Below, one piece after another: positions 897 through 8,182 of a stretch of DNA of 64,000 nucleotides. The first letter of the stretch is position 1. The number at the start of each line of letters is the position of its first letter. Source of the stretch: Thermoplasmatales archaeon SG8-52-3 (GTDB lineage Archaea > Thermoplasmatota > E2 > DHVEG-1); the NCBI GenBank assembly GCA_001595915.1, contig LSSG01000019.1, positions 5,408-69,407 of the forward strand, in the 5' to 3' direction. Both the position numbers and the translations under genes were made by a program. The notes under the pieces were generated by a model, which saw only the letters and a program-made list of their open reading frames with translations, had not been told where the DNA came from and ran no database searches.

Positions 897-1451
897 ATGA
901 TAATGGTTGATAATATGGGAAAAGTAAAAGTTTTTAGATGTAGAATTTGCGGCGATCCTTACATTGGTTCAGAGGCACCAATGCATTGCCCTTTTTGTGG
1001 TGCACCTCAAAGATTCTTTGTGAAAGCTCAAGATTGGAATCCTGATGAATTTAACGTAAAATTAAGTGAAATATCTAAGAAAAATCTTGAAGCTGCACTA
1101 CAGCTGGAATTAGACAATGCATCATTTTATGATTGTGCAAAAAACAAAGCACAGAAAGCAGGTGATAATTACAGTCTAGCAAAATTCAAAGCTCTTATGA
1201 AAGTTGAAAGAGAGCATGCTTCAGCAATCTCAAAATTCTTGAAAATTTCTAGCCCCGAACTTAAAAAACAAGCATGTAATGCTGATTCAAAGGTAAATTC
1301 AAAAGAGGGTTGGGAAAGAGAAGGTCGTGCAATAAAATCCTATTCTAAGTTCAGAGACGAAGCAACTGAGCAAAGACTTAAAGAGTTTTTTGGTGCCCTT
1401 GTAGAGATTGAAACAGATCATTTAGATTTACATTCTGAATATTTCAAGTGA
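897..1451 (+). CDS. Rubrerythrin-family diiron protein with N-terminal rubredoxin-like Cys4 ribbon ('reverse' domain order)
   Basis: N-terminus FRCRICGDPY…MHCPFCGAPQ (CxxC…CxxC), followed by a ferritin-like four-helix region (LELDNASFYDCA…MKVEREHASAI…VEIETDHLDLH). The start could also be ATG 915. Confidence 0.8.
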   Translation: MIMVDNMGKVKVFRCRICGDPYIGSEAPMHCPFCGAPQRFFVKAQDWNPDEFNVKLSEISKKNLEAALQLELDNASFYDCAKNKAQKAGDNYSLAKFKALMKVEREHASAISKFLKISSPELKKQACNADSKVNSKEGWEREGRAIKSYSKFRDEATEQRLKEFFGALVEIETDHLDLHSEYFK

Positions 1452-1460
1452 GGTGAAACA

Positions 1461-1952
1461 ATGGATTTGAATAGTTTTGATTTGGAAGAATTATTTCTAG
1501 CAGCAATTAAAAGTGAAATTGATAGCAATAAACTATACATAAAAATGTCGAAGAAAACAAAAAACGGGTTACTTAAAGATAAACTGAAATTTCTTGCTCT
1601 CGAAGAAGAAAAACATAGAGAATATATTGAAGAAATTTATCTAAATCATTATCCAGAAAATAAAATTATTATTCCAAAGAAATCACCTGTTCCTTTACCT
1701 GAAATAAATATGTCTGAAGACCTACCTTTAAGTAAACTTTTAAAAGAAGCAATGAATGCTGAAAATATTGCAAGTGATTTTTACAAATCCCTTGCAGATC
1801 GTTTCGAAGAAGGAACTAAATTATTCAATACTTTAGTTTATTTTTCAGATATGGAAAAGGGTCATTATAAATTATTAGAAATGGAAAAAGAGAGCATGGA
1901 ACGTTTTGAGGAAGGAGATGTTTACTGGCCTATGGTTCATGCTGGTCCATGA
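1461..1952 (+). CDS. Ferritin-like/rubrerythrin-domain protein (no rubredoxin domain)
   Basis: EIDSNKLY…FLALEEEKHREYIEE…AENIASDFY…SDMEKGHYKLLE. These are paired E…ExxH diiron-type motifs. GAGGTGA lies upstream. Confidence 0.7.
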   Translation: MDLNSFDLEELFLAAIKSEIDSNKLYIKMSKKTKNGLLKDKLKFLALEEEKHREYIEEIYLNHYPENKIIIPKKSPVPLPEINMSEDLPLSKLLKEAMNAENIASDFYKSLADRFEEGTKLFNTLVYFSDMEKGHYKLLEMEKESMERFEEGDVYWPMVHAGP

Positions 1953-1976
1953 ATAAAATTGTAAGGAGGAAAATTT

Positions 1977-2552
1977 ATGAAAACTATGAAAGGAACACAA
2001 ACTGAAAAAAATCTACTTGCAGCATTTGCAGGAGAATCACAAGCTAGGAATAGATATTCATTTTTTGCTTCAACAGCAAAAAAAGAAGGATACGAACAAA
2101 TTGCAGCAATATTCCAAGAGACAGCTGATAACGAAAAAGAACATGCTAAGGTGTTTTTTAAGCATTTACAAGGTGGAGATGTTGAAATCATCGCTGAATA
2201 CCCTGCAGGAAAAATCGGAAGTACAGCAGATAACTTATTAGCAGCAGCTGAAGGTGAAAAAATGGAATGGGGTAAACTTTATCCAGATTTTTCAGAAACA
2301 GCAGAAAAAGAAGGATTCCCAATGGTTGCACATAGTTTTAAAAAGATTGCTGAAGTAGAAGCATATCATGAAAGAAGATATAGAAAATTACTTGAAAATA
2401 TCAAGAAAAAACAAGTATTTAAAAAAGATGATACAAAAAAATGGAAATGTCGTAATTGTGGATATGTTCATGAAGGAAAAGAGGCACCTGATGTATGTCC
2501 AGCATGTCAACATCCACAAAGCTACTATGAGATTTGGACAGAATCTTATTAA
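1977..2552 (+). CDS. rbr: Rubrerythrin (classical: N-terminal diiron domain, C-terminal rubredoxin domain)
   Basis: MKGTQTEKNLLAAFAGESQARNRYSFFASTAKKEGYEQIAAIFQETADNEKEHAK… and C-terminal WKCRNCGYVHEGKEAPDVCPACQHPQSYYE. AGGAGG lies upstream. Confidence 0.95.
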   Translation: MKTMKGTQTEKNLLAAFAGESQARNRYSFFASTAKKEGYEQIAAIFQETADNEKEHAKVFFKHLQGGDVEIIAEYPAGKIGSTADNLLAAAEGEKMEWGKLYPDFSETAEKEGFPMVAHSFKKIAEVEAYHERRYRKLLENIKKKQVFKKDDTKKWKCRNCGYVHEGKEAPDVCPACQHPQSYYEIWTESY

Positions 2553-2572
2553 AATTTAAGGAGGAAAACAAT

Positions 2573-3100
2573 TTGACAAATATTGAAAATGTAAAGGATG
2601 CAATTTTGACTGCTATACAAATGGAAAAAGATGGATACACATTTTATACAAATGCTGCTGCCCAAACCAAGAGTGAGATGGGTAGAACGATATTTGAAAG
2701 TCTAGCAGCAGATGAACAAAAGCATCTTGATGTTTTTCAGAAAATGTTTGAAGAAAGAGTAGGACAATCAGAGTGGAATGATTTAGTAAAATCTAGTAAG
2801 AAATATGCAAATATACCAGTATTTCCAACAGATCTAAAAGATGCTCCTGGAATGGATCCTGACAGTACTGAAATTGATGCTCTAAGAATGGCAATGGATA
2901 GTGAAAAAGAAGCAATTGATTATTATAACTCCATAAAGGAAAACCTCGAAGATGATGAATTGAAAAATGTAATAAGTGAGATAATTGAACAAGAAAAAAA
3001 TCATTATTCTTTGCTTGAAAATGAATTCAATCATATCAATTCAACAGGTTATTGGTTTGAATTTGACTATTTAGGTGGTCATGGGGGGCAATATTTCTGA
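2573..3100 (+). CDS. Ferritin-like/rubrerythrin-domain protein
   Basis: AIQMEKDGYTFYTNAA…LAADEQKHLDVF…AMDSEKEAIDYY…IIEQEKNHYSLLE. The ORF track starts at ATG 2534 inside rbr. The in-frame TTG at 2573, 9 nt after GGAGG (2559-2563), is the more plausible start. Confidence 0.7.
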   Translation: MTNIENVKDAILTAIQMEKDGYTFYTNAAAQTKSEMGRTIFESLAADEQKHLDVFQKMFEERVGQSEWNDLVKSSKKYANIPVFPTDLKDAPGMDPDSTEIDALRMAMDSEKEAIDYYNSIKENLEDDELKNVISEIIEQEKNHYSLLENEFNHINSTGYWFEFDYLGGHGGQYF

Positions 3101-3153
3101 ATAAAATTATAAAACCAGACGCAGAAATTGATTGTGTTGGTTATTTTTGCCCA

Positions 3154-3339
3154 ATGCCTATTGCTATGACAAAGGAAGAAATTGATAAGATAGAAATTGG
3201 ACAGGTGTTAAAAGTTGAAGCAGATGATCCTGCAGCAGAAGAGGACATTAAACGTTGGGCAAAACGCACAGGTCATGAGATATTAAAATTTCAAAAAGAA
3301 GGGACAATTTTAACCTTCTATATTAAAAAAAAGAAATGA
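3154..3339 (+). CDS. TusA/SirA-like sulfur-carrier protein. The true start is probably upstream of the first ATG (see findings).
   Basis: From the ATG: MPIAMTKEEIDKIEIGQVLKVEADDPAAEEDIKRWAKRTGHEILKF. The upstream in-frame codons read …IDCVGYFCP, completing the family's CPxP active-site motif (Cys codon 3148-3150). Confidence 0.75.
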   Translation: MPIAMTKEEIDKIEIGQVLKVEADDPAAEEDIKRWAKRTGHEILKFQKEGTILTFYIKKKK

Positions 3340-3340
3340 A

Positions 3341-3712
3341 GTGAAAAAAATGAAAGATGAAAATTCAATATTATATGTGCTAACAACAGATGCACCTGAA
3401 AAACAATATTCACCATTGGTTTTGGCTCAAACTGCAAAAATGATGGATATTAAACCTATGGTTTATTATCTTGGAACAGGACTCAAGATTTTAAAACCTG
3501 GGGAGGCTGAAAAAATAAAACTAGGTAGTTTTCCAAGTGTTGCAGAGATGATAAAAAAAACTCTTGATATGGGAATAGAAATATATGTGTGTGAAGCGTC
3601 AAAACAAATGCTTGGTTGGGAAAAGGTCGACCTAATTTCTGGAGTTAAAATTGTTGGAGCTGGAACACTAAACGATCTTGCCTTAGATGCAGGAGCAACT
3701 ATGTGGTTTTAG
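3341..3712 (+). CDS. DsrE/DsrF-like sulfur-relay family protein
   Basis: GTG start. ILYVLTTDAPEKQYSPLVLAQTAKMMD…VYYLGTGLKIL…EIYVCEASKQMLG is typical of the DsrE-fold with a conserved Cys. Confidence 0.7.
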   Translation: MKKMKDENSILYVLTTDAPEKQYSPLVLAQTAKMMDIKPMVYYLGTGLKILKPGEAEKIKLGSFPSVAEMIKKTLDMGIEIYVCEASKQMLGWEKVDLISGVKIVGAGTLNDLALDAGATMWF

Positions 3713-3724
3713 TGAGATTATAAA

Positions 3725-4879
3725 ATGGAAAAAATTTATCTAGATCATGCATCTGCAATGCCCATTGATTCTAGGGTTTACAAATTTGCAGAACCATACT
3801 TGCTAAATGTAGGAAATCCCTCATCATTATATGAGTTTGGACAAGAAGCCAAAGATGCAATTGAAAAATCAAGAATTAAGATTGTTGATTTAATAAATGC
3901 AGAAAATGAAAAAACTATAATATTTACAGGTAGTGCAACTGAATCAAATAATATAGCAATAAGAGGAACTGCTTATAGAAATATAAATGAGGGAAAAGAA
4001 GTTCTTTCCAGTGCAATTGAACATATTTCAGTAATTAATCCTATGAAAGATCTTCAAAAAAATGGCTGGACATATAATTCAATTCCTGTGGACAAATATG
4101 GAATTATTGATTTATCTAAACTTAAAAAAATAATAACAAAAAAAACAATTGTGACTTCAATTATGTATGCAAATAATGAGATTGGTACAATTGAACCTAT
4201 AAAAGAAATCTCAAAAATTGTTCATGATGAAGGAAAATATTTACATGTGGATGCAACAGCAGCAGCGGGAAGAATCCCAATCGATGTTCAGAAAGATGGA
4301 ATTGATCTTTTAACTCTATCCTCAAATGATTTGTATGGTCCACGAGGTGCAGGTGTCTTATATATAAAACCTGGTGTGAAAATCCAATCGATAATGCCTG
4401 GAGGAGGACAAGAGAGGGGTCTTAGGTCTGGAACTGAAAATATTTTTGCAATTGCTGGTATGGGTGAAGCAGCAAAAATTGCAAAAAACGAAATGAATGC
4501 TGAAAGTAAACGTTTGATAACGATAAGAGATAAACTTATATCTGAAATTACAAAGATGGATGAAACCTATTTAACAGGTCATCAAAAACAACGTTTACCT
4601 CATCATGCAAGTTTCAGATTTAGCCATATTGAGGGAGAAAGTATTCTGTTAAACATGGACATGTATGGAATTCAAATTGCAACTGGTTCTGCTTGTTCAT
4701 CAAAAACTCTTGAACCATCACATGTTCTTTTAGCAATAGGTCTAAAACATGAGGAAGCACATGGATCTATGGTAATTACTTTAGGTAGGTCTAATAAAAT
4801 AAATCAAGTTCAAAAAATTGTGAAAGCTGTTAATGAAACTGTAATTAGATTAAGAAAGCTTTCACCATTAATTAAATGA
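3725..4879 (+). CDS. iscS: IscS/NifS-like class-V aminotransferase-fold protein lacking the PLP-binding lysine
   Basis: IYLDHASAMP…FTGSATESNN…, active-site loop ATGSACSSKTLEPSHVL. The canonical S-x-H-K-x-x-GP-K/R-G motif instead reads LSSNDLYGPRGAG (Asn-Asp codons 4325-4330). Confidence 0.85.
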   Translation: MEKIYLDHASAMPIDSRVYKFAEPYLLNVGNPSSLYEFGQEAKDAIEKSRIKIVDLINAENEKTIIFTGSATESNNIAIRGTAYRNINEGKEVLSSAIEHISVINPMKDLQKNGWTYNSIPVDKYGIIDLSKLKKIITKKTIVTSIMYANNEIGTIEPIKEISKIVHDEGKYLHVDATAAAGRIPIDVQKDGIDLLTLSSNDLYGPRGAGVLYIKPGVKIQSIMPGGGQERGLRSGTENIFAIAGMGEAAKIAKNEMNAESKRLITIRDKLISEITKMDETYLTGHQKQRLPHHASFRFSHIEGESILLNMDMYGIQIATGSACSSKTLEPSHVLLAIGLKHEEAHGSMVITLGRSNKINQVQKIVKAVNETVIRLRKLSPLIK

Positions 4880-4912
4880 GGTGATAAAATTCCGGCATAT
4901 AGTAAGAAAGTA

Positions 4913-5266
4913 ATGGATCATTTTACAAATCCGAGAAATGTAGGCGTAATTGAAAATCCTGATGGTTATGGAAAGGTTGGAAATCCTGTTTGTGGGGATT
5001 TAATGGAGATGTACATAAAGGTTGAAAATGATGTTATAAAAGATATAAAATTCAAAACATTTGGGTGTGGCTCGGCCATTGCAACTAGTTCCATGGTAAC
5101 AGAAATAGCAATTGGAAAAACAGTTGATGAAGCATTGAAAATTACTAGAAATGACGTAGCAAATGAACTAGATGGTCTGCCACCTCAGAAGATGCATTGC
5201 TCTAATTTAGCTGCCGATGCGTTGCATGCAGCTATTGATGATTATAAGAAGAAAAAAAAGAAATAA
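4913..5266 (+). CDS. iscU: IscU/NifU-N-type Fe-S cluster scaffold
   Basis: NPRNVG…[15 protein letters not shown]…[14 protein letters not shown]…[12 protein letters not shown] carries the three scaffold Cys. The conserved N-terminus (P)AYSKKV lies upstream of the first ATG, so a probable ATT start at 4889 is proposed (see findings). Confidence 0.9.
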
Positions 5267-5288: not shown

Positions 5289-5666
5289 ATGACAAAAGTT
5301 AGAGAGATATACAAATGTAATATTTGTGGAAATATTGTAGAAATGGTACATGCTGGTGTTGGTGAGCTTGTTTGTTGTGGAGAATCAATGGAATTATTGA
5401 AGGAAAAAACAGAGGATTCATCTGTTGAAAAACATGTTCCTTTTATTGGAAAAACAGATGATGGTGTTCTTGTAAAAGTGGGTCAAAACCAAGATCACCC
5501 AATGGAAGAGAAACACTTTATCGAATGGATTCAAATAATTGCAGATGGCGAGGTATATAGAAAGTTTTTAAAACCAGGTGATAAACCTCAAGCAAAGTTT
5601 TGTATTAAAGCAAATAAAATTCAAGCCCGTGAATATTGTAATGTTCATGGTTTATGGAGATCATAG
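5289..5666 (+). CDS. dfx: Desulfoferrodoxin (2Fe superoxide reductase)
   Basis: [37 protein letters not shown] is the desulforedoxin-like N-domain. The SOR domain follows: EKHVPFI…[12 protein letters not shown]…CNVHGLW. The track start at 5217 overlaps iscU and adds a basic junk leader. ATG 5289 follows AGAGGT. Confidence 0.9.
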
Positions 5667-5709: not shown

Positions 5710-7323
5710 ATGTTTTGTTATCAATGTGAGGAAACAATAAATAATAAGGGTTGTACAACTGCTGGTGCTTGTGGTAAAAAAGGTGATGTAGCAAATTTAC
5801 AAGACCTTTTAATATATTTAATGAAAGGAATATCACTTTGCAATATTGAAGCAAGAAAACAGGGTAAAAACACCGAGGAAGCAGACAAATTCATAATGGA
5901 TAATTTATTTGCTACAATTACAAATGCAAACTTTGATAAAAAATATTTTTTAGATAAAATTCAAGAAGCAATAAAATTAAGAGAAAAAATAAAAGAAACA
6001 GTATCTGTAGACTCAAAACATGATTCAGTTATATGGCAATCTAATAATCAAGATGAGATTTTTGAAAAAGCAGAGAAAATAGGCATCCTTAGTACACAAA
6101 ACGAAGATATAAGATCACTTCGATGGTTACTTACATATGGAATTAAGGGAATGGCTGCTTATTCTCATCATGCATATGTAATTGGTAACAAAGACGAAGA
6201 AATTTTCAAATTTATGCAAGAGGGACTTGCTGCCACTACCAAGGATTTATCAGCAGAAGAATTAACAAATTTAGTAATTAAATGTGGTGAGATGGGTGTC
6301 AAAACTATGGCCTTACTTGATAAAGCAAACACATCAACATATGGTAATCCCGAAATTACAAAGGTAAATATCGGTGTTAGAAACAACCCAGGTATTCTGA
6401 TTAGTGGTCATGATTTGAAGGATTTAGAACAATTACTCAAACAAACAAAAGGAACTGGTGTTGATGTATACACCCATGGTGAGATGCTACCAGCAAATGC
6501 CTATCCGGCTTTTAAGAAATATTCTCATTTAGTTGGCAATTATGGCAGTTCTTGGTGGAAACAAAAGGAAGAGTTTGAAAAATTCAATGGACCTATCCTT
6601 TTAACAACGAATTGTCTTGTTCCTCCAAGAGATTCCTACAAAGATAGAGTATATACAACTGGAATTGTGGGTTTTGAAGGACTAAGGTATATTCCAGATG
6701 GAGATCCTAAGGATTTTTCAGAAATAATTGAACATGCAAAAAGAAGTTCCACACCTGAAAAAATTGATGATGGTGAAATTACAATTGGTTTTGCACATAA
6801 TGCAACACTAAGTGTTGCTGATAAAATAGTTGATGCAGTAAAATCCGGCAAAATCAAGCGATTTATTGTGATGGCCGGTTGTGATGGCAGACGACCAAAT
6901 AGACAATATTATACTGATTTTGCAAAAGCTCTATCAAATGATACAGCAATTCTTACTGCGGGATGCGCAAAATATCGATATAATAAACTTGGACTTGGAG
7001 ATATTGACGGAATCCCAAGAGTTATAGATGCAGGTCAATGTAATGATTCTTATTCACTTGTAGTAATCGCTAAAAAGCTCGCTGAGGTTTTTGGAGTTGA
7101 ATTGAATGAGTTACCAATTTCTTTCAATATTGCATGGTATGAACAAAAAGCTGTTCTTGTTTTACTTTCACTTTTATCACTTGGTGTTAAAAATATAATG
7201 CTAGGGCCAACTCTACCTGCATTTGTATCACCAAATGTGTTAAAAGTTTTGATTGAAAAGTTCAATATACAACCAAATTCAACTGTTGAAAATGATCTTC
7301 CAACATTAAAAATTGTTGCATAG
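5710..7323 (+). CDS. hcp: Hybrid-cluster protein (prismane protein/hydroxylamine reductase)
   Basis: [36 protein letters not shown]… is the N-terminal Cys motif. Length and the remainder are typical of Hcp. GGAGGA lies upstream. Confidence 0.95.
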
Positions 7324-7333
7324 ATTGATAAAA

Positions 7334-8182
7334 ATGTCGAAAAGAAAGATTGTTAAAATTGATGAGGAAAAGTGTACAGGTTGTGGATTATGCATTCCAA
7401 ATTGTCCTGAAGGTGCAATTCAAATAATAGATGGAAAAGCTAGACTTGTTAGTGATATTTTTTGCGACGGTCTTGGTGCTTGTCTTGGACATTGCCCTGA
7501 AGGAGCAATTTCTACTGAAGAACGAGAGGCAGAACCTTATGATGAAAGAAAGACAATGGTAAATATTGTTAAAGCTGGGAAAAACACAATTATTGCTCAT
7601 CTAAATCATTTAAAAGATCATGGTGAAACTGAATATCTCAGGCAAGCACAAGAATATCTAGAAGAACAAGGTATTGAAATTAAATTAAAAGATGAAGAAT
7701 GTGGTTGTACACATGAACCTCATCATGCATGTCCTGGAGCGCAAATGAAGGATTTCTCAAATGAAAAAAAAGATACTGAGGGGGAGACAGAATCTAAAAG
7801 CTCTCAACTTAGACAATGGCCTATTCAACTTCATCTGGTACCACCATTTGCACCATATTTCCAAGGAAAAGATGTGTTGCTAGTTGCTGATTGTGTCGGT
7901 TATTCTATTGGTGATTTTCATAAAGATTATATCAAAGGTAGAAGTATTTCTATTGCTTGTCCAAAATTAGATTCAAATCAAGAAATCTACTTGGATAAAT
8001 TGATTAAATTGATAGATGGAGCAAAAATAAAAACCTTAACGGTTATGACAATGGAGGTACCATGTTGTAGTGGCCTACTTCATCTTGCAAAAAGAGCAGC
8101 TGAAAAAGCCACAAAGAAAATTCCTATAAAATCAATAGTTGTTGGAATTAAAGGGGACATTTTAAAGGAAGAATGGATTTAA
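7334..8182 (+). CDS. 4Fe-4S dicluster-domain protein with Cys-rich C-terminal domain. It is a putative Hcp-associated electron-transfer partner.
   Basis: CTGCGLCIPNCPEGAI…CDGLGACLGHCPEGAI, then a C-terminal VLLVADCVGYS…IACPKLDS…MEVPCCSGLLH. Function is inferred from adjacency to hcp. Confidence 0.65.
   Translation: MSKRKIVKIDEEKCTGCGLCIPNCPEGAIQIIDGKARLVSDIFCDGLGACLGHCPEGAISTEEREAEPYDERKTMVNIVKAGKNTIIAHLNHLKDHGETEYLRQAQEYLEEQGIEIKLKDEECGCTHEPHHACPGAQMKDFSNEKKDTEGETESKSSQLRQWPIQLHLVPPFAPYFQGKDVLLVADCVGYSIGDFHKDYIKGRSISIACPKLDSNQEIYLDKLIKLIDGAKIKTLTVMTMEVPCCSGLLHLAKRAAEKATKKIPIKSIVVGIKGDILKEEWI

Follow-up and report, generated by a model that had tools for sequence, protein, structure and literature searches.

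Here we describe a four-gene cassette in a 64,000-nucleotide (nt) stretch of DNA from Thermoplasmatales archaeon SG8-52-3 (contig LSSG01000019.1, positions 5,408 to 69,407 of the forward strand; hereafter, the window). Its third gene encodes a homologue of the group I cysteine desulfurases IscS and NifS, of the class-V aminotransferase fold, in which Asn-Asp replaces the conserved His-Lys pair, removing the lysine that forms the Schiff base with pyridoxal 5′-phosphate (PLP). This loss is a trait of a whole clade, and the Lys-less IscS genes of several phyla are preceded by genes for two sulfur carriers, TusA and a DsrE-family protein, a linkage seen at none of the Lys-bearing loci sampled. The cassette probably encodes a PLP-free IscS–IscU scaffold fed by a TusA/DsrE persulfide relay, which would act as an auxiliary module for iron–sulfur (Fe–S) clusters.

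The open reading frame (ORF) at 3725-4879 translates as LTLSSNDLYGPRGAG, with SSND in place of the S-x-H-K motif, and the segment GIDLLTLSSNDLYGPRGAG contains Asn201 (aat, 4325-4327) and Asp202 (gat, 4328-4330). When the protein is aligned with E. coli IscS (reference sequence from NC_000913) in MAFFT, Asp202 falls on Lys206 and Asn201 on His205. Alignments to E. coli IscS and to the structures 4EB5 and 4R5F run without gaps across the motif. An alternative Schiff-base lysine was considered and ruled out, there being no other Lys within LTLSSNDLYGPRG. The Pfam profile Aminotran_5 matches the protein over its full length (242.8 bits against a gathering threshold of 21.5; profile positions 1-370 of 371), while its scores fall below the NCBIfam cut-offs for the NifS equivalog TIGR03402 (424 vs 530.75 bits) and for IscS, TIGR02006 (373.5 vs 643.2 bits). 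Its closest solved relative in HMMER searches is Archaeoglobus fulgidus IscS2 (AfIscS2; 4EB5/4EB7/4HVK, E 1e-124), with SSND aligned on SSND and 50% pairwise identity over 379 residues. AfIscS2 reads LTISSNDIYGPKG at these columns, and its engineered D199K variant, 4R5F, reads SSNK there. The mobile loop that carries the persulfide is intact: the Cys of SGSAC(T/S)S is invariant in all 116 aligned sequences and is Cys324 of GSACSS here. The initial annotation had been made from the window alone, and its description of Asn-Asp at 4325-4330 in place of His-Lys, beside an intact persulfide loop and an intact downstream IscU, proved correct in translation and alignment. The coordinates of the cassette and its surroundings are collected in Table 1.

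Table 1 Features of the cassette and its surroundings (window positions, except in the last row, which lies on another contig of the same genome)
Feature	Position	Strand	Basis
Four rubrerythrin/ferritin-like genes, directly upstream of the cassette	897..3100	+	ORF list
TusA-like sulfur carrier with two Cys (D-C-V-G-Y-F-C-P-M-P)	3097..3339	+	Pfam TusA, 68.2 vs 28.6 bits
DsrE-family, DsrE3-like sulfur carrier, active-site Cys84 in IYVCEAS	3341..3712	+	Pfam DsrE, 50.9 bits
IscS/NifS homologue of A. fulgidus IscS2 type, PLP lysine absent	3725..4879	+	384 aa
Ala179, at the E. coli Gln183 position	4259..4261	+	Alignment with E. coli IscS
Asn201-Asp202 codons, at the E. coli IscS His205-Lys206 position (Schiff-base lysine replaced)	4325..4330	+	Alignments
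Cys324 (tgt) of GSACSS, mobile-loop counterpart of E. coli Cys328 (persulfide carrier) and of the A. fulgidus Cys that ligates the [2Fe-2S] cluster	4694..4696	+	Alignment
Val350, at the E. coli Arg354 position	4772..4774	+	Alignment with E. coli IscS
IscU scaffold	4889..5266 (first ATG 4913)	+	Pfam NifU_N, 167.2 bits
Desulfoferrodoxin (Dfx), directly downstream of the cassette	5289-5666	+	Pfam
Hybrid-cluster protein (Hcp)	5710-7323	+	Pfam
Fer4 protein	7313-8182	+	Pfam
Canonical pair directly after nadA, locus L001 (G000 contig C26:3855-7952)	iscS 1492-2658, iscU from 2673		

The tusA and dsrE3-like genes lie directly upstream of iscS on the same strand, with intergenic gaps of 1-12 nt. The TusA CPxP Cys codon is at 3148-3150, for Cys17 in the 79-residue translation of 3100-3336, and CPMP is encoded if translation begins upstream of the ATG at 3154. 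This frame contains no ATG, GTG or TTG between the stop at 3064-3066 and that ATG, and the conserved DCVGYFCPMP precedes it. CTG 3097 aligns with the ATG of the relative L017, and relatives have their ATG at this place or slightly (a few codons) further on. Initiation at a non-canonical codon (CTG, ATT or ATA) and an error of sequencing within the G-run at 3084-3089 are both possible. The protein scores below the NCBIfam TusA equivalog cut-off (57.7 vs 78) and is therefore a TusA-family protein rather than an orthologue of E. coli TusA. A second Cys, absent upstream of the CPxP Cys in E. coli TusA, stands five residues before it (C-x4-C, within D-C-[VI]-G-x-x-C-P) in 28 of 33 cassette loci, the places considered being 3130-3153 of the window and loci L009-L017, L089-L091 and L099-L100. 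The closest solved relative of the DsrE-like protein is 3MC3 (E 8e-12), which is DsrE3A of S. solfataricus (Liu et al., PMC4175335). Both the CPxP Cys of TusA and the active-site Cys of DsrE are conserved throughout (33/33 and 33/33 cassette loci). The best explanation of 3097-5266 is a four-gene operon of the order tusA, dsrE3-like, iscS(Asn-Asp), iscU. A scan for sigma-70 promoters and terminators returned counts equal to chance and, the host being an archaeon, is uninformative.

Similar arrangements accompany Lys-less IscS in distant lineages. Using the proteins of the window as tblastn queries over all fetched loci with enough flank, we found tusA within 1.5 kb upstream of iscS in 25 of 28 Lys-less loci and 0 of 119 Lys-bearing ones, and dsrE within the same distance in 23/28 and 0/119, in a biased sample in which divergent carriers beside Lys-bearing IscS could escape detection. 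The Lys-less loci span Thermoplasmatota, Bathyarchaeia, Methanocellales, Archaeoglobaceae, WOR-3, Eisenbacteria, Thermoleophilia and one deltaproteobacterial metagenome-assembled genome. The order tusA-dsrE-iscS-iscU recurs in L089, the nearest available relative of AfIscS2 (89% identical to it). Within the open-access literature, which was the extent of our search, we found no paper that names a link of tusA and dsrE to Lys-less IscS.

The protein retains the IscS fold, Cys324 and an intact IscU partner, and it would most likely form an (IscS–IscU)2 scaffold with Cys324 reaching the IscU assembly site, by homology to 4EB5 and 4EB7. The sulfur would be supplied in protein-bound sulfane form, after polysulfide, thiosulfate or another persulfide had loaded both the two-cysteine TusA and the DsrE3-like protein. 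Gene linkage suggests that TusA could then pass sulfur to Cys324 by trans-persulfidation, the reverse of the IscS-to-TusA step of E. coli, and that Cys324 could deliver it to IscU. Such a reversal would be needed because a Lys-less IscS is predicted to be unable to make a persulfide. Transfer from Cys to Cys is geometrically precedented, since Cys328 of IscS and Cys19 of TusA lie ~4 Å apart in the E. coli IscS–TusA complex (PMC2854127).

Several observations weigh against a carrier-fed scaffold. The direction of sulfur flow that we assign to the cassette TusA and DsrE is a guess. The DsrE-like protein is missing the second Cys of DsrE3A (C-x7-C, PMC4175335), reading CEASKQMLG where 3MC3 reads CVQSLKDMC, and some Lys-less loci, those of Eisenbacteria, are without an adjacent iscU. 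The clade shows no specific conservation of the residues through which E. coli IscS contacts TusA (Trp45, Glu49, Asp52), so the E. coli docking mode is not transferable; as a docking test this interface was uninformative, Arg55 being invariant in both types of IscS and Trp45, Glu49 and Asp52 varying in both. The loci came from two related queries and their neighbours were found by similarity to the proteins of the window; this sampling was neither random nor complete. The association with stress genes described below holds mainly in the subclade of the present gene and was not seen in the Archaeoglobaceae loci. Finally, the published A. fulgidus model needs no carrier, calling only on free sulfide and a Cys ligand.

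That model underlies the alternative that survives best, although we consider it rather unlikely for this cassette. Here the Lys-less IscS would be a scaffold partner only, stabilising IscU and offering Cys324 as fourth ligand of a nascent [2Fe-2S] cluster, with environmental sulfide as the sulfur source and TusA and DsrE merely co-expressed, for instance in sulfane sulfur buffering or detoxification. In favour of this are the A. fulgidus structure and assays: according to the summary of Marinoni 2012, Yamanaka 2013 and Pagnier 2015 given in PMC7585200, A. fulgidus IscS shows no desulfurase activity and supplies the Cys that ligates the [2Fe-2S] cluster on IscU. The organism is moreover an anaerobe with O2-detoxification genes, in which sulfide is plausibly at hand, and sulfide-fed Fe–S assembly is documented for SMS systems (PMC12192291). 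A role as scaffold alone nevertheless leaves unexplained why tusA and dsrE accompany Lys-less IscS in ~85% of sampled loci, in many phyla, and never Lys-bearing IscS, and why both carrier cysteines are invariant.

The IscU of the cassette bears on both the carrier-fed scaffold and the next alternative. Read from ATT 4889, the protein passes the NCBIfam equivalog NifU_clost (214.9 vs 187.9 bits), and its ligands Cys, Asp, Cys and His-Cys are all intact in PVCGD, FGCGS and MHCSN, as they are in 30 of 30 IscU genes that accompany Lys-less IscS. Translation from this ATT, which lies 4 nt past GGTGAT and eight codons before the first ATG and is probably the start codon, yields the conserved N-terminus (P)AYSKKV. 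The relative L013 likewise has no canonical start before its GYSKKV, with ATC as a candidate. IscU is encoded directly downstream of IscS in 22 of 34 loci.

Searched with Pfam profiles, the whole assembly (84 contigs, 79% complete) yielded a second IscS on contig C26, where the gene order is nadA-iscS-iscU and the IscS, of the SSHK type, reads SISSHKIYGPKG and has the loop GSACSS. This Lys-bearing protein passes the NifS equivalog TIGR03402 (533.6 vs 530.75). Its IscU partner contains a large intein-like insert (FKTFGC / LPHNEE...GFTVHN / CTAAIATSS) at the second cluster-ligand Cys. Within the family, 13 of 25 genomes have the Lys-less type (62-100% identical to the query), and all 13 also have a Lys-bearing IscS (43-49% identical to it). 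An apparent lack of an intact canonical iscS in G001, of the same genus, was rejected: the ~8 kb split is an assembly gap, the break coinciding with a stretch of N and the iscS pieces being separated by ordinary housekeeping genes (L202, G001:C1:1318500-1330500). The SufB/SufD core domain (PF01458, SUFBD_core) was found neither in this genome, where at 79% completeness absence is not proof, nor in 22 of the 25 family genomes, the same search detecting it in all 14 control genomes. IscS–IscU pairs thus seem to be the main Fe–S scaffolds in this lineage. Because a canonical iscS(HK)-iscU pair occurs here and in 13/13 cassette-bearing family genomes, the cassette is an add-on and not a replacement for cysteine desulfuration. 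The initial annotation had read the locus as implying sulfide- or relay-dependent assembly rather than cysteine desulfuration; a relay gains strong genomic support from the upstream linkage (25/28 and 23/28 vs 0/119), but the replacement part of the claim is unsupported for the organism as a whole, given the canonical pair in the same genome.

The presence of a canonical IscS in every cassette-bearing family genome would also suit a sulfur-trafficking hub beyond Fe–S assembly, in which the Lys-less IscS would be an adaptor receiving persulfide, be it from carriers or the canonical IscS, for onward transfer via TusA and DsrE to thiolation targets such as tRNA or molybdopterin, like the IscS–TusA–TusBCD system of E. 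coli, where TusA and the DsrE-family TusD act downstream of IscS (PMC2854127). We regard this as improbable: an intact IscU gene lies immediately downstream in the 22 loci counted above, the A. fulgidus protein has been solved with IscU as its partner, and no thiolation enzyme (such as MnmA, TusE or MoaD) was seen in the cassette.

Returning to the PLP-free scaffold, the lysine is one of several active-site residues that the clade has lost. We compared 32 sequences of the SSND clade with 71 Lys-bearing sequences, numbering the columns on E. coli IscS. At the Gln183 column, 31/32 sequences of the SSND clade have Ala and 68/71 of the Lys-bearing set have Gln; at the His205 column, 29/32 have Asn and 61/71 His, respectively, and at the Lys206 column, 28/32 have Asp and 71/71 Lys. 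The Arg354 column holds Val, Gln, Leu or Glu in the clade, with Arg in 0/32, compared with Arg in 70/71 Lys-bearing sequences. His104, Asp180, Thr76, Ser203 and Cys328 are present in all 32 clade members. The protein of the window follows this pattern, with Gln183 changed to Ala, Arg354 changed to Val, and His104, Asp180, Thr76 and Ser203 retained. In E. coli IscS, Gln183 is the ligand of PLP O3′ and Arg354 the residue that binds the substrate carboxylate; the other columns include the Schiff-base lysine (Lys206) and a phosphate ligand. In the SSND clade, four cofactor and substrate residues (Gln183, His205, Lys206 and Arg354) are therefore lost together. Given this joint loss and the published A. 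fulgidus enzyme, the Lys-less IscS of the window most likely does not bind PLP and is unable to draw sulfur from cysteine.

Two arginines have been gained in the same clade. Arg85 (3977-3979; E. coli Phe89) and Arg298 (4616-4618; E. coli Ser304) are conserved only in SSND sequences (28/32 and 31/32), Lys-bearing IscS having mostly Ala or Met and Ser or Cys at these columns, respectively. Their role may be to remodel the former PLP pocket or to provide an anion-binding site.

The retained pocket residues His104, Asp180, Thr76 and Ser203 are what might be said for a protein that is still a cysteine desulfurase, working through non-covalent PLP or with another lysine as Schiff base. With Lys206, His205, Gln183 and the substrate-binding Arg354 lost together, no lysine in the segment around the motif, and the A. 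fulgidus orthologue reported inactive in the summary of PMC7585200, such activity is very improbable.

The substitution is also far from private to this genome. Among the 120 closest database homologues listed (78-100% identity), 107 have SSND, 5 SSNA and 1 SAND, making 113 of 120, the few others lying outside the motif regular expression used. In a first scan of one genome per species, all loci of at least 52% identity are without the Lys and read SSND, except L016 (SSNN), and all loci below 50% identity carry xHK or, in DPANN-type archaea, xSK. With AfIscS2 as the seed, a second scan brought in SSND loci from Archaeoglobaceae, Eisenbacteria and Thermoleophilia, some only 44-50% identical to the protein of the window, together with a few other Lys-less variants (SGSQ, AGAT, AAQG). 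Eighteen of the best 150 representatives of 50%-identity clusters (from 1.84 billion proteins) are without the Schiff-base lysine. A 114-row maximum-likelihood tree, from a quick IQ-TREE search with the three trait columns kept in (3/383 columns), places the protein in a clade of 31 rows, all Lys-less, with a Shimodaira–Hasegawa-like approximate likelihood ratio test (SH-aLRT) support of 96. This clade holds six Archaeoglobaceae-type rows and stands apart from Lys-bearing IscS; a second, looser group of 11 Lys-less rows is placed elsewhere. On this tree, loss of the Lys takes 5 changes, compared with ~35 when labels are shuffled. The ratio of nonsynonymous to synonymous substitution rates (dN/dS) between the Lys-less iscS and eight relatives is 0.06-0.14.

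The loss of the Lys is thus a trait of the whole clade and not a lesion, nor is it chance or sequencing noise. The low dN/dS and the conservation across the clade show that the gene is not a pseudogene, as the initial annotation had argued. Its further statement, that the locus shares the trait of A. fulgidus IscS, was likewise borne out, by the common SSND and common Lys-less clade. A canonical paralogue in the same genome might suggest a decaying duplicate, a functionless pseudoenzyme, but this idea is effectively refuted by the purifying dN/dS values, a deep multi-phylum clade with a fixed motif, the invariant Cys324 and the retained four-gene synteny.

Other departures from His-Lys were seen along the way. 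The looser Lys-less group (L105, L107, L133 and L167; representatives P0132, P0147, P0150, P0167, P0185, P0231, P0240 and P0262) occurs in Syntrophaceae, WOR-3 and other lineages and carries SQ, AT, QG, NQ, QQ, RS and other replacements. Its members also have no Gln183, and L105 has tusA downstream. Many IscS homologues of Woesearchaeota, Nanoarchaeota and Peregrinibacteria read S-K for H-K, His205 being lost and the Lys kept (L027, L029, L047, L066 and L087, and 19/150 cluster representatives).

The cassette is flanked by genes associated with O2 and NO stress (Table 1). Further downstream lie genes for a peroxiredoxin, a nitroreductase-like protein and a thioredoxin/glutaredoxin-like protein. 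In L009, L013 and most family relatives, a homologue of the last rubrerythrin/ferritin-like gene lies next to the cassette, as Dfx does in 10 of 11 family relatives (L171-L181). Several loci of other phyla also have Dfx, Hcp or rubrerythrin-like genes beside the cassette. This recurrent position in an O2/NO-stress island suggests, as a hypothesis, that the cassette is used during or after oxidative stress. Together, the canonical iscS-iscU pair and the rubrerythrin, desulfoferrodoxin, Hcp and peroxiredoxin neighbours are the grounds for regarding the cassette as an auxiliary, cysteine-independent module of Fe–S assembly or repair, perhaps for oxidative or nitrosative stress, which would not be the sole route to clusters.

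A broader proposal can be put forward tentatively. The two-cysteine TusA, the DsrE3-like carrier, the Lys-less IscS and IscU could constitute a distinct and widespread Fe–S assembly or repair machine of anaerobes, in which cysteine and PLP give way to protein-bound sulfane sulfur as the sulfur source and the 'dead' desulfurase shuttles persulfide onto IscU. In the present Thermoplasmata lineage, it might be deployed with O2/NO-detoxification genes, to rebuild clusters once oxidation has turned free sulfide into polysulfide or thiosulfate.

An IscS with Lys changed to Asp is already known from A. fulgidus and has been noted for Methanosarcina acetivorans, and the present gene is another member of this type rather than a new kind of protein. 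For more than a decade, the A. fulgidus protein has been a structural curiosity without an accepted sulfur source, and in the published papers that could be searched, the neighbours of Lys-less IscS are called genes of unknown function or go unmentioned. The tie to TusA and DsrE across phyla, for Lys-less IscS only, offers a concrete and testable sulfur route. What this locus adds is the coexistence with a normal IscS–IscU pair and the oxidative-stress island, which speak for a role that is specialised or back-up and against cysteine desulfuration having been replaced wholesale. A relay of this kind, if real, would be one more sulfur feed into Fe–S clusters besides cysteine desulfurases and free sulfide.

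Among known systems, the A. fulgidus IscS2–IscU complex (4EB5, 4EB7, 4HVK; 4R5F) is the closest, sharing SSND, the GSACSSK loop, an iscU directly downstream and membership of the same clade. Both A. fulgidus IscS copies are reported (Pagnier et al.) to be without the lysine; by contrast, a canonical Lys-bearing iscS-iscU pair is also present here, and the cassette lies in an O2/NO-stress island of a kind unseen in the Archaeoglobaceae loci. The coexistence of Lys-less and active pairs is matched in M. acetivorans, where IscS1–IscU1 (MA0808/MA0807), with an IscS1 devoid of PLP-binding residues, stands beside the active IscS2–IscU2 (PMC7585200). The M. acetivorans IscS2–IscU2 genes cluster with genes of NAD biosynthesis, and four neighbouring genes of isc1 are termed 'of unknown function' (PMC7585200). 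The canonical pair here likewise follows nadA; IscU1 of M. acetivorans is larger (24 kDa) than the IscU of 117-125 aa found here.

Three further systems resemble parts of the cassette. In Metallosphaera, protein-bound sulfur is carried by DsrE3A and TusA and passed between them (PMC4175335), and the Metallosphaera/Sulfolobus pair of thiosulfonate carriers shares with the cassette an adjacent TusA and a conserved active-site Cys, 3MC3 being the closest solved relative. That pair serves dissimilatory sulfur oxidation (sHdr context) and has the C-x7-C motif, in contrast to the cassette DsrE, which is without the second Cys and stands in an Fe–S assembly context. The minimal ISC (MIS) system of anaerobes (MisS–MisU) is alike in its two-gene core of IscS-like and IscU-like proteins, which lacks HscAB, IscA and ferredoxin; the ORF list and Pfam scan likewise show no hscAB, iscA or fdx near the cassette. 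MIS has an active cysteine desulfurase by definition (PMC12192291); the cassette, with its desulfurase residues lost, is for that reason not a MIS member, and it has two carriers added. The E. coli IscS–TusA–TusBCD relay (3LVJ) combines the same IscS, TusA and DsrE-fold families, and transfer between the loop Cys and the CPxP Cys is shown there structurally. Its interface residues are not conserved in the clade, and its IscS is a PLP-active sulfur source from which sulfur flows to TusA for tRNA thiolation, whereas in the cassette the flow would run in reverse and serve IscU.

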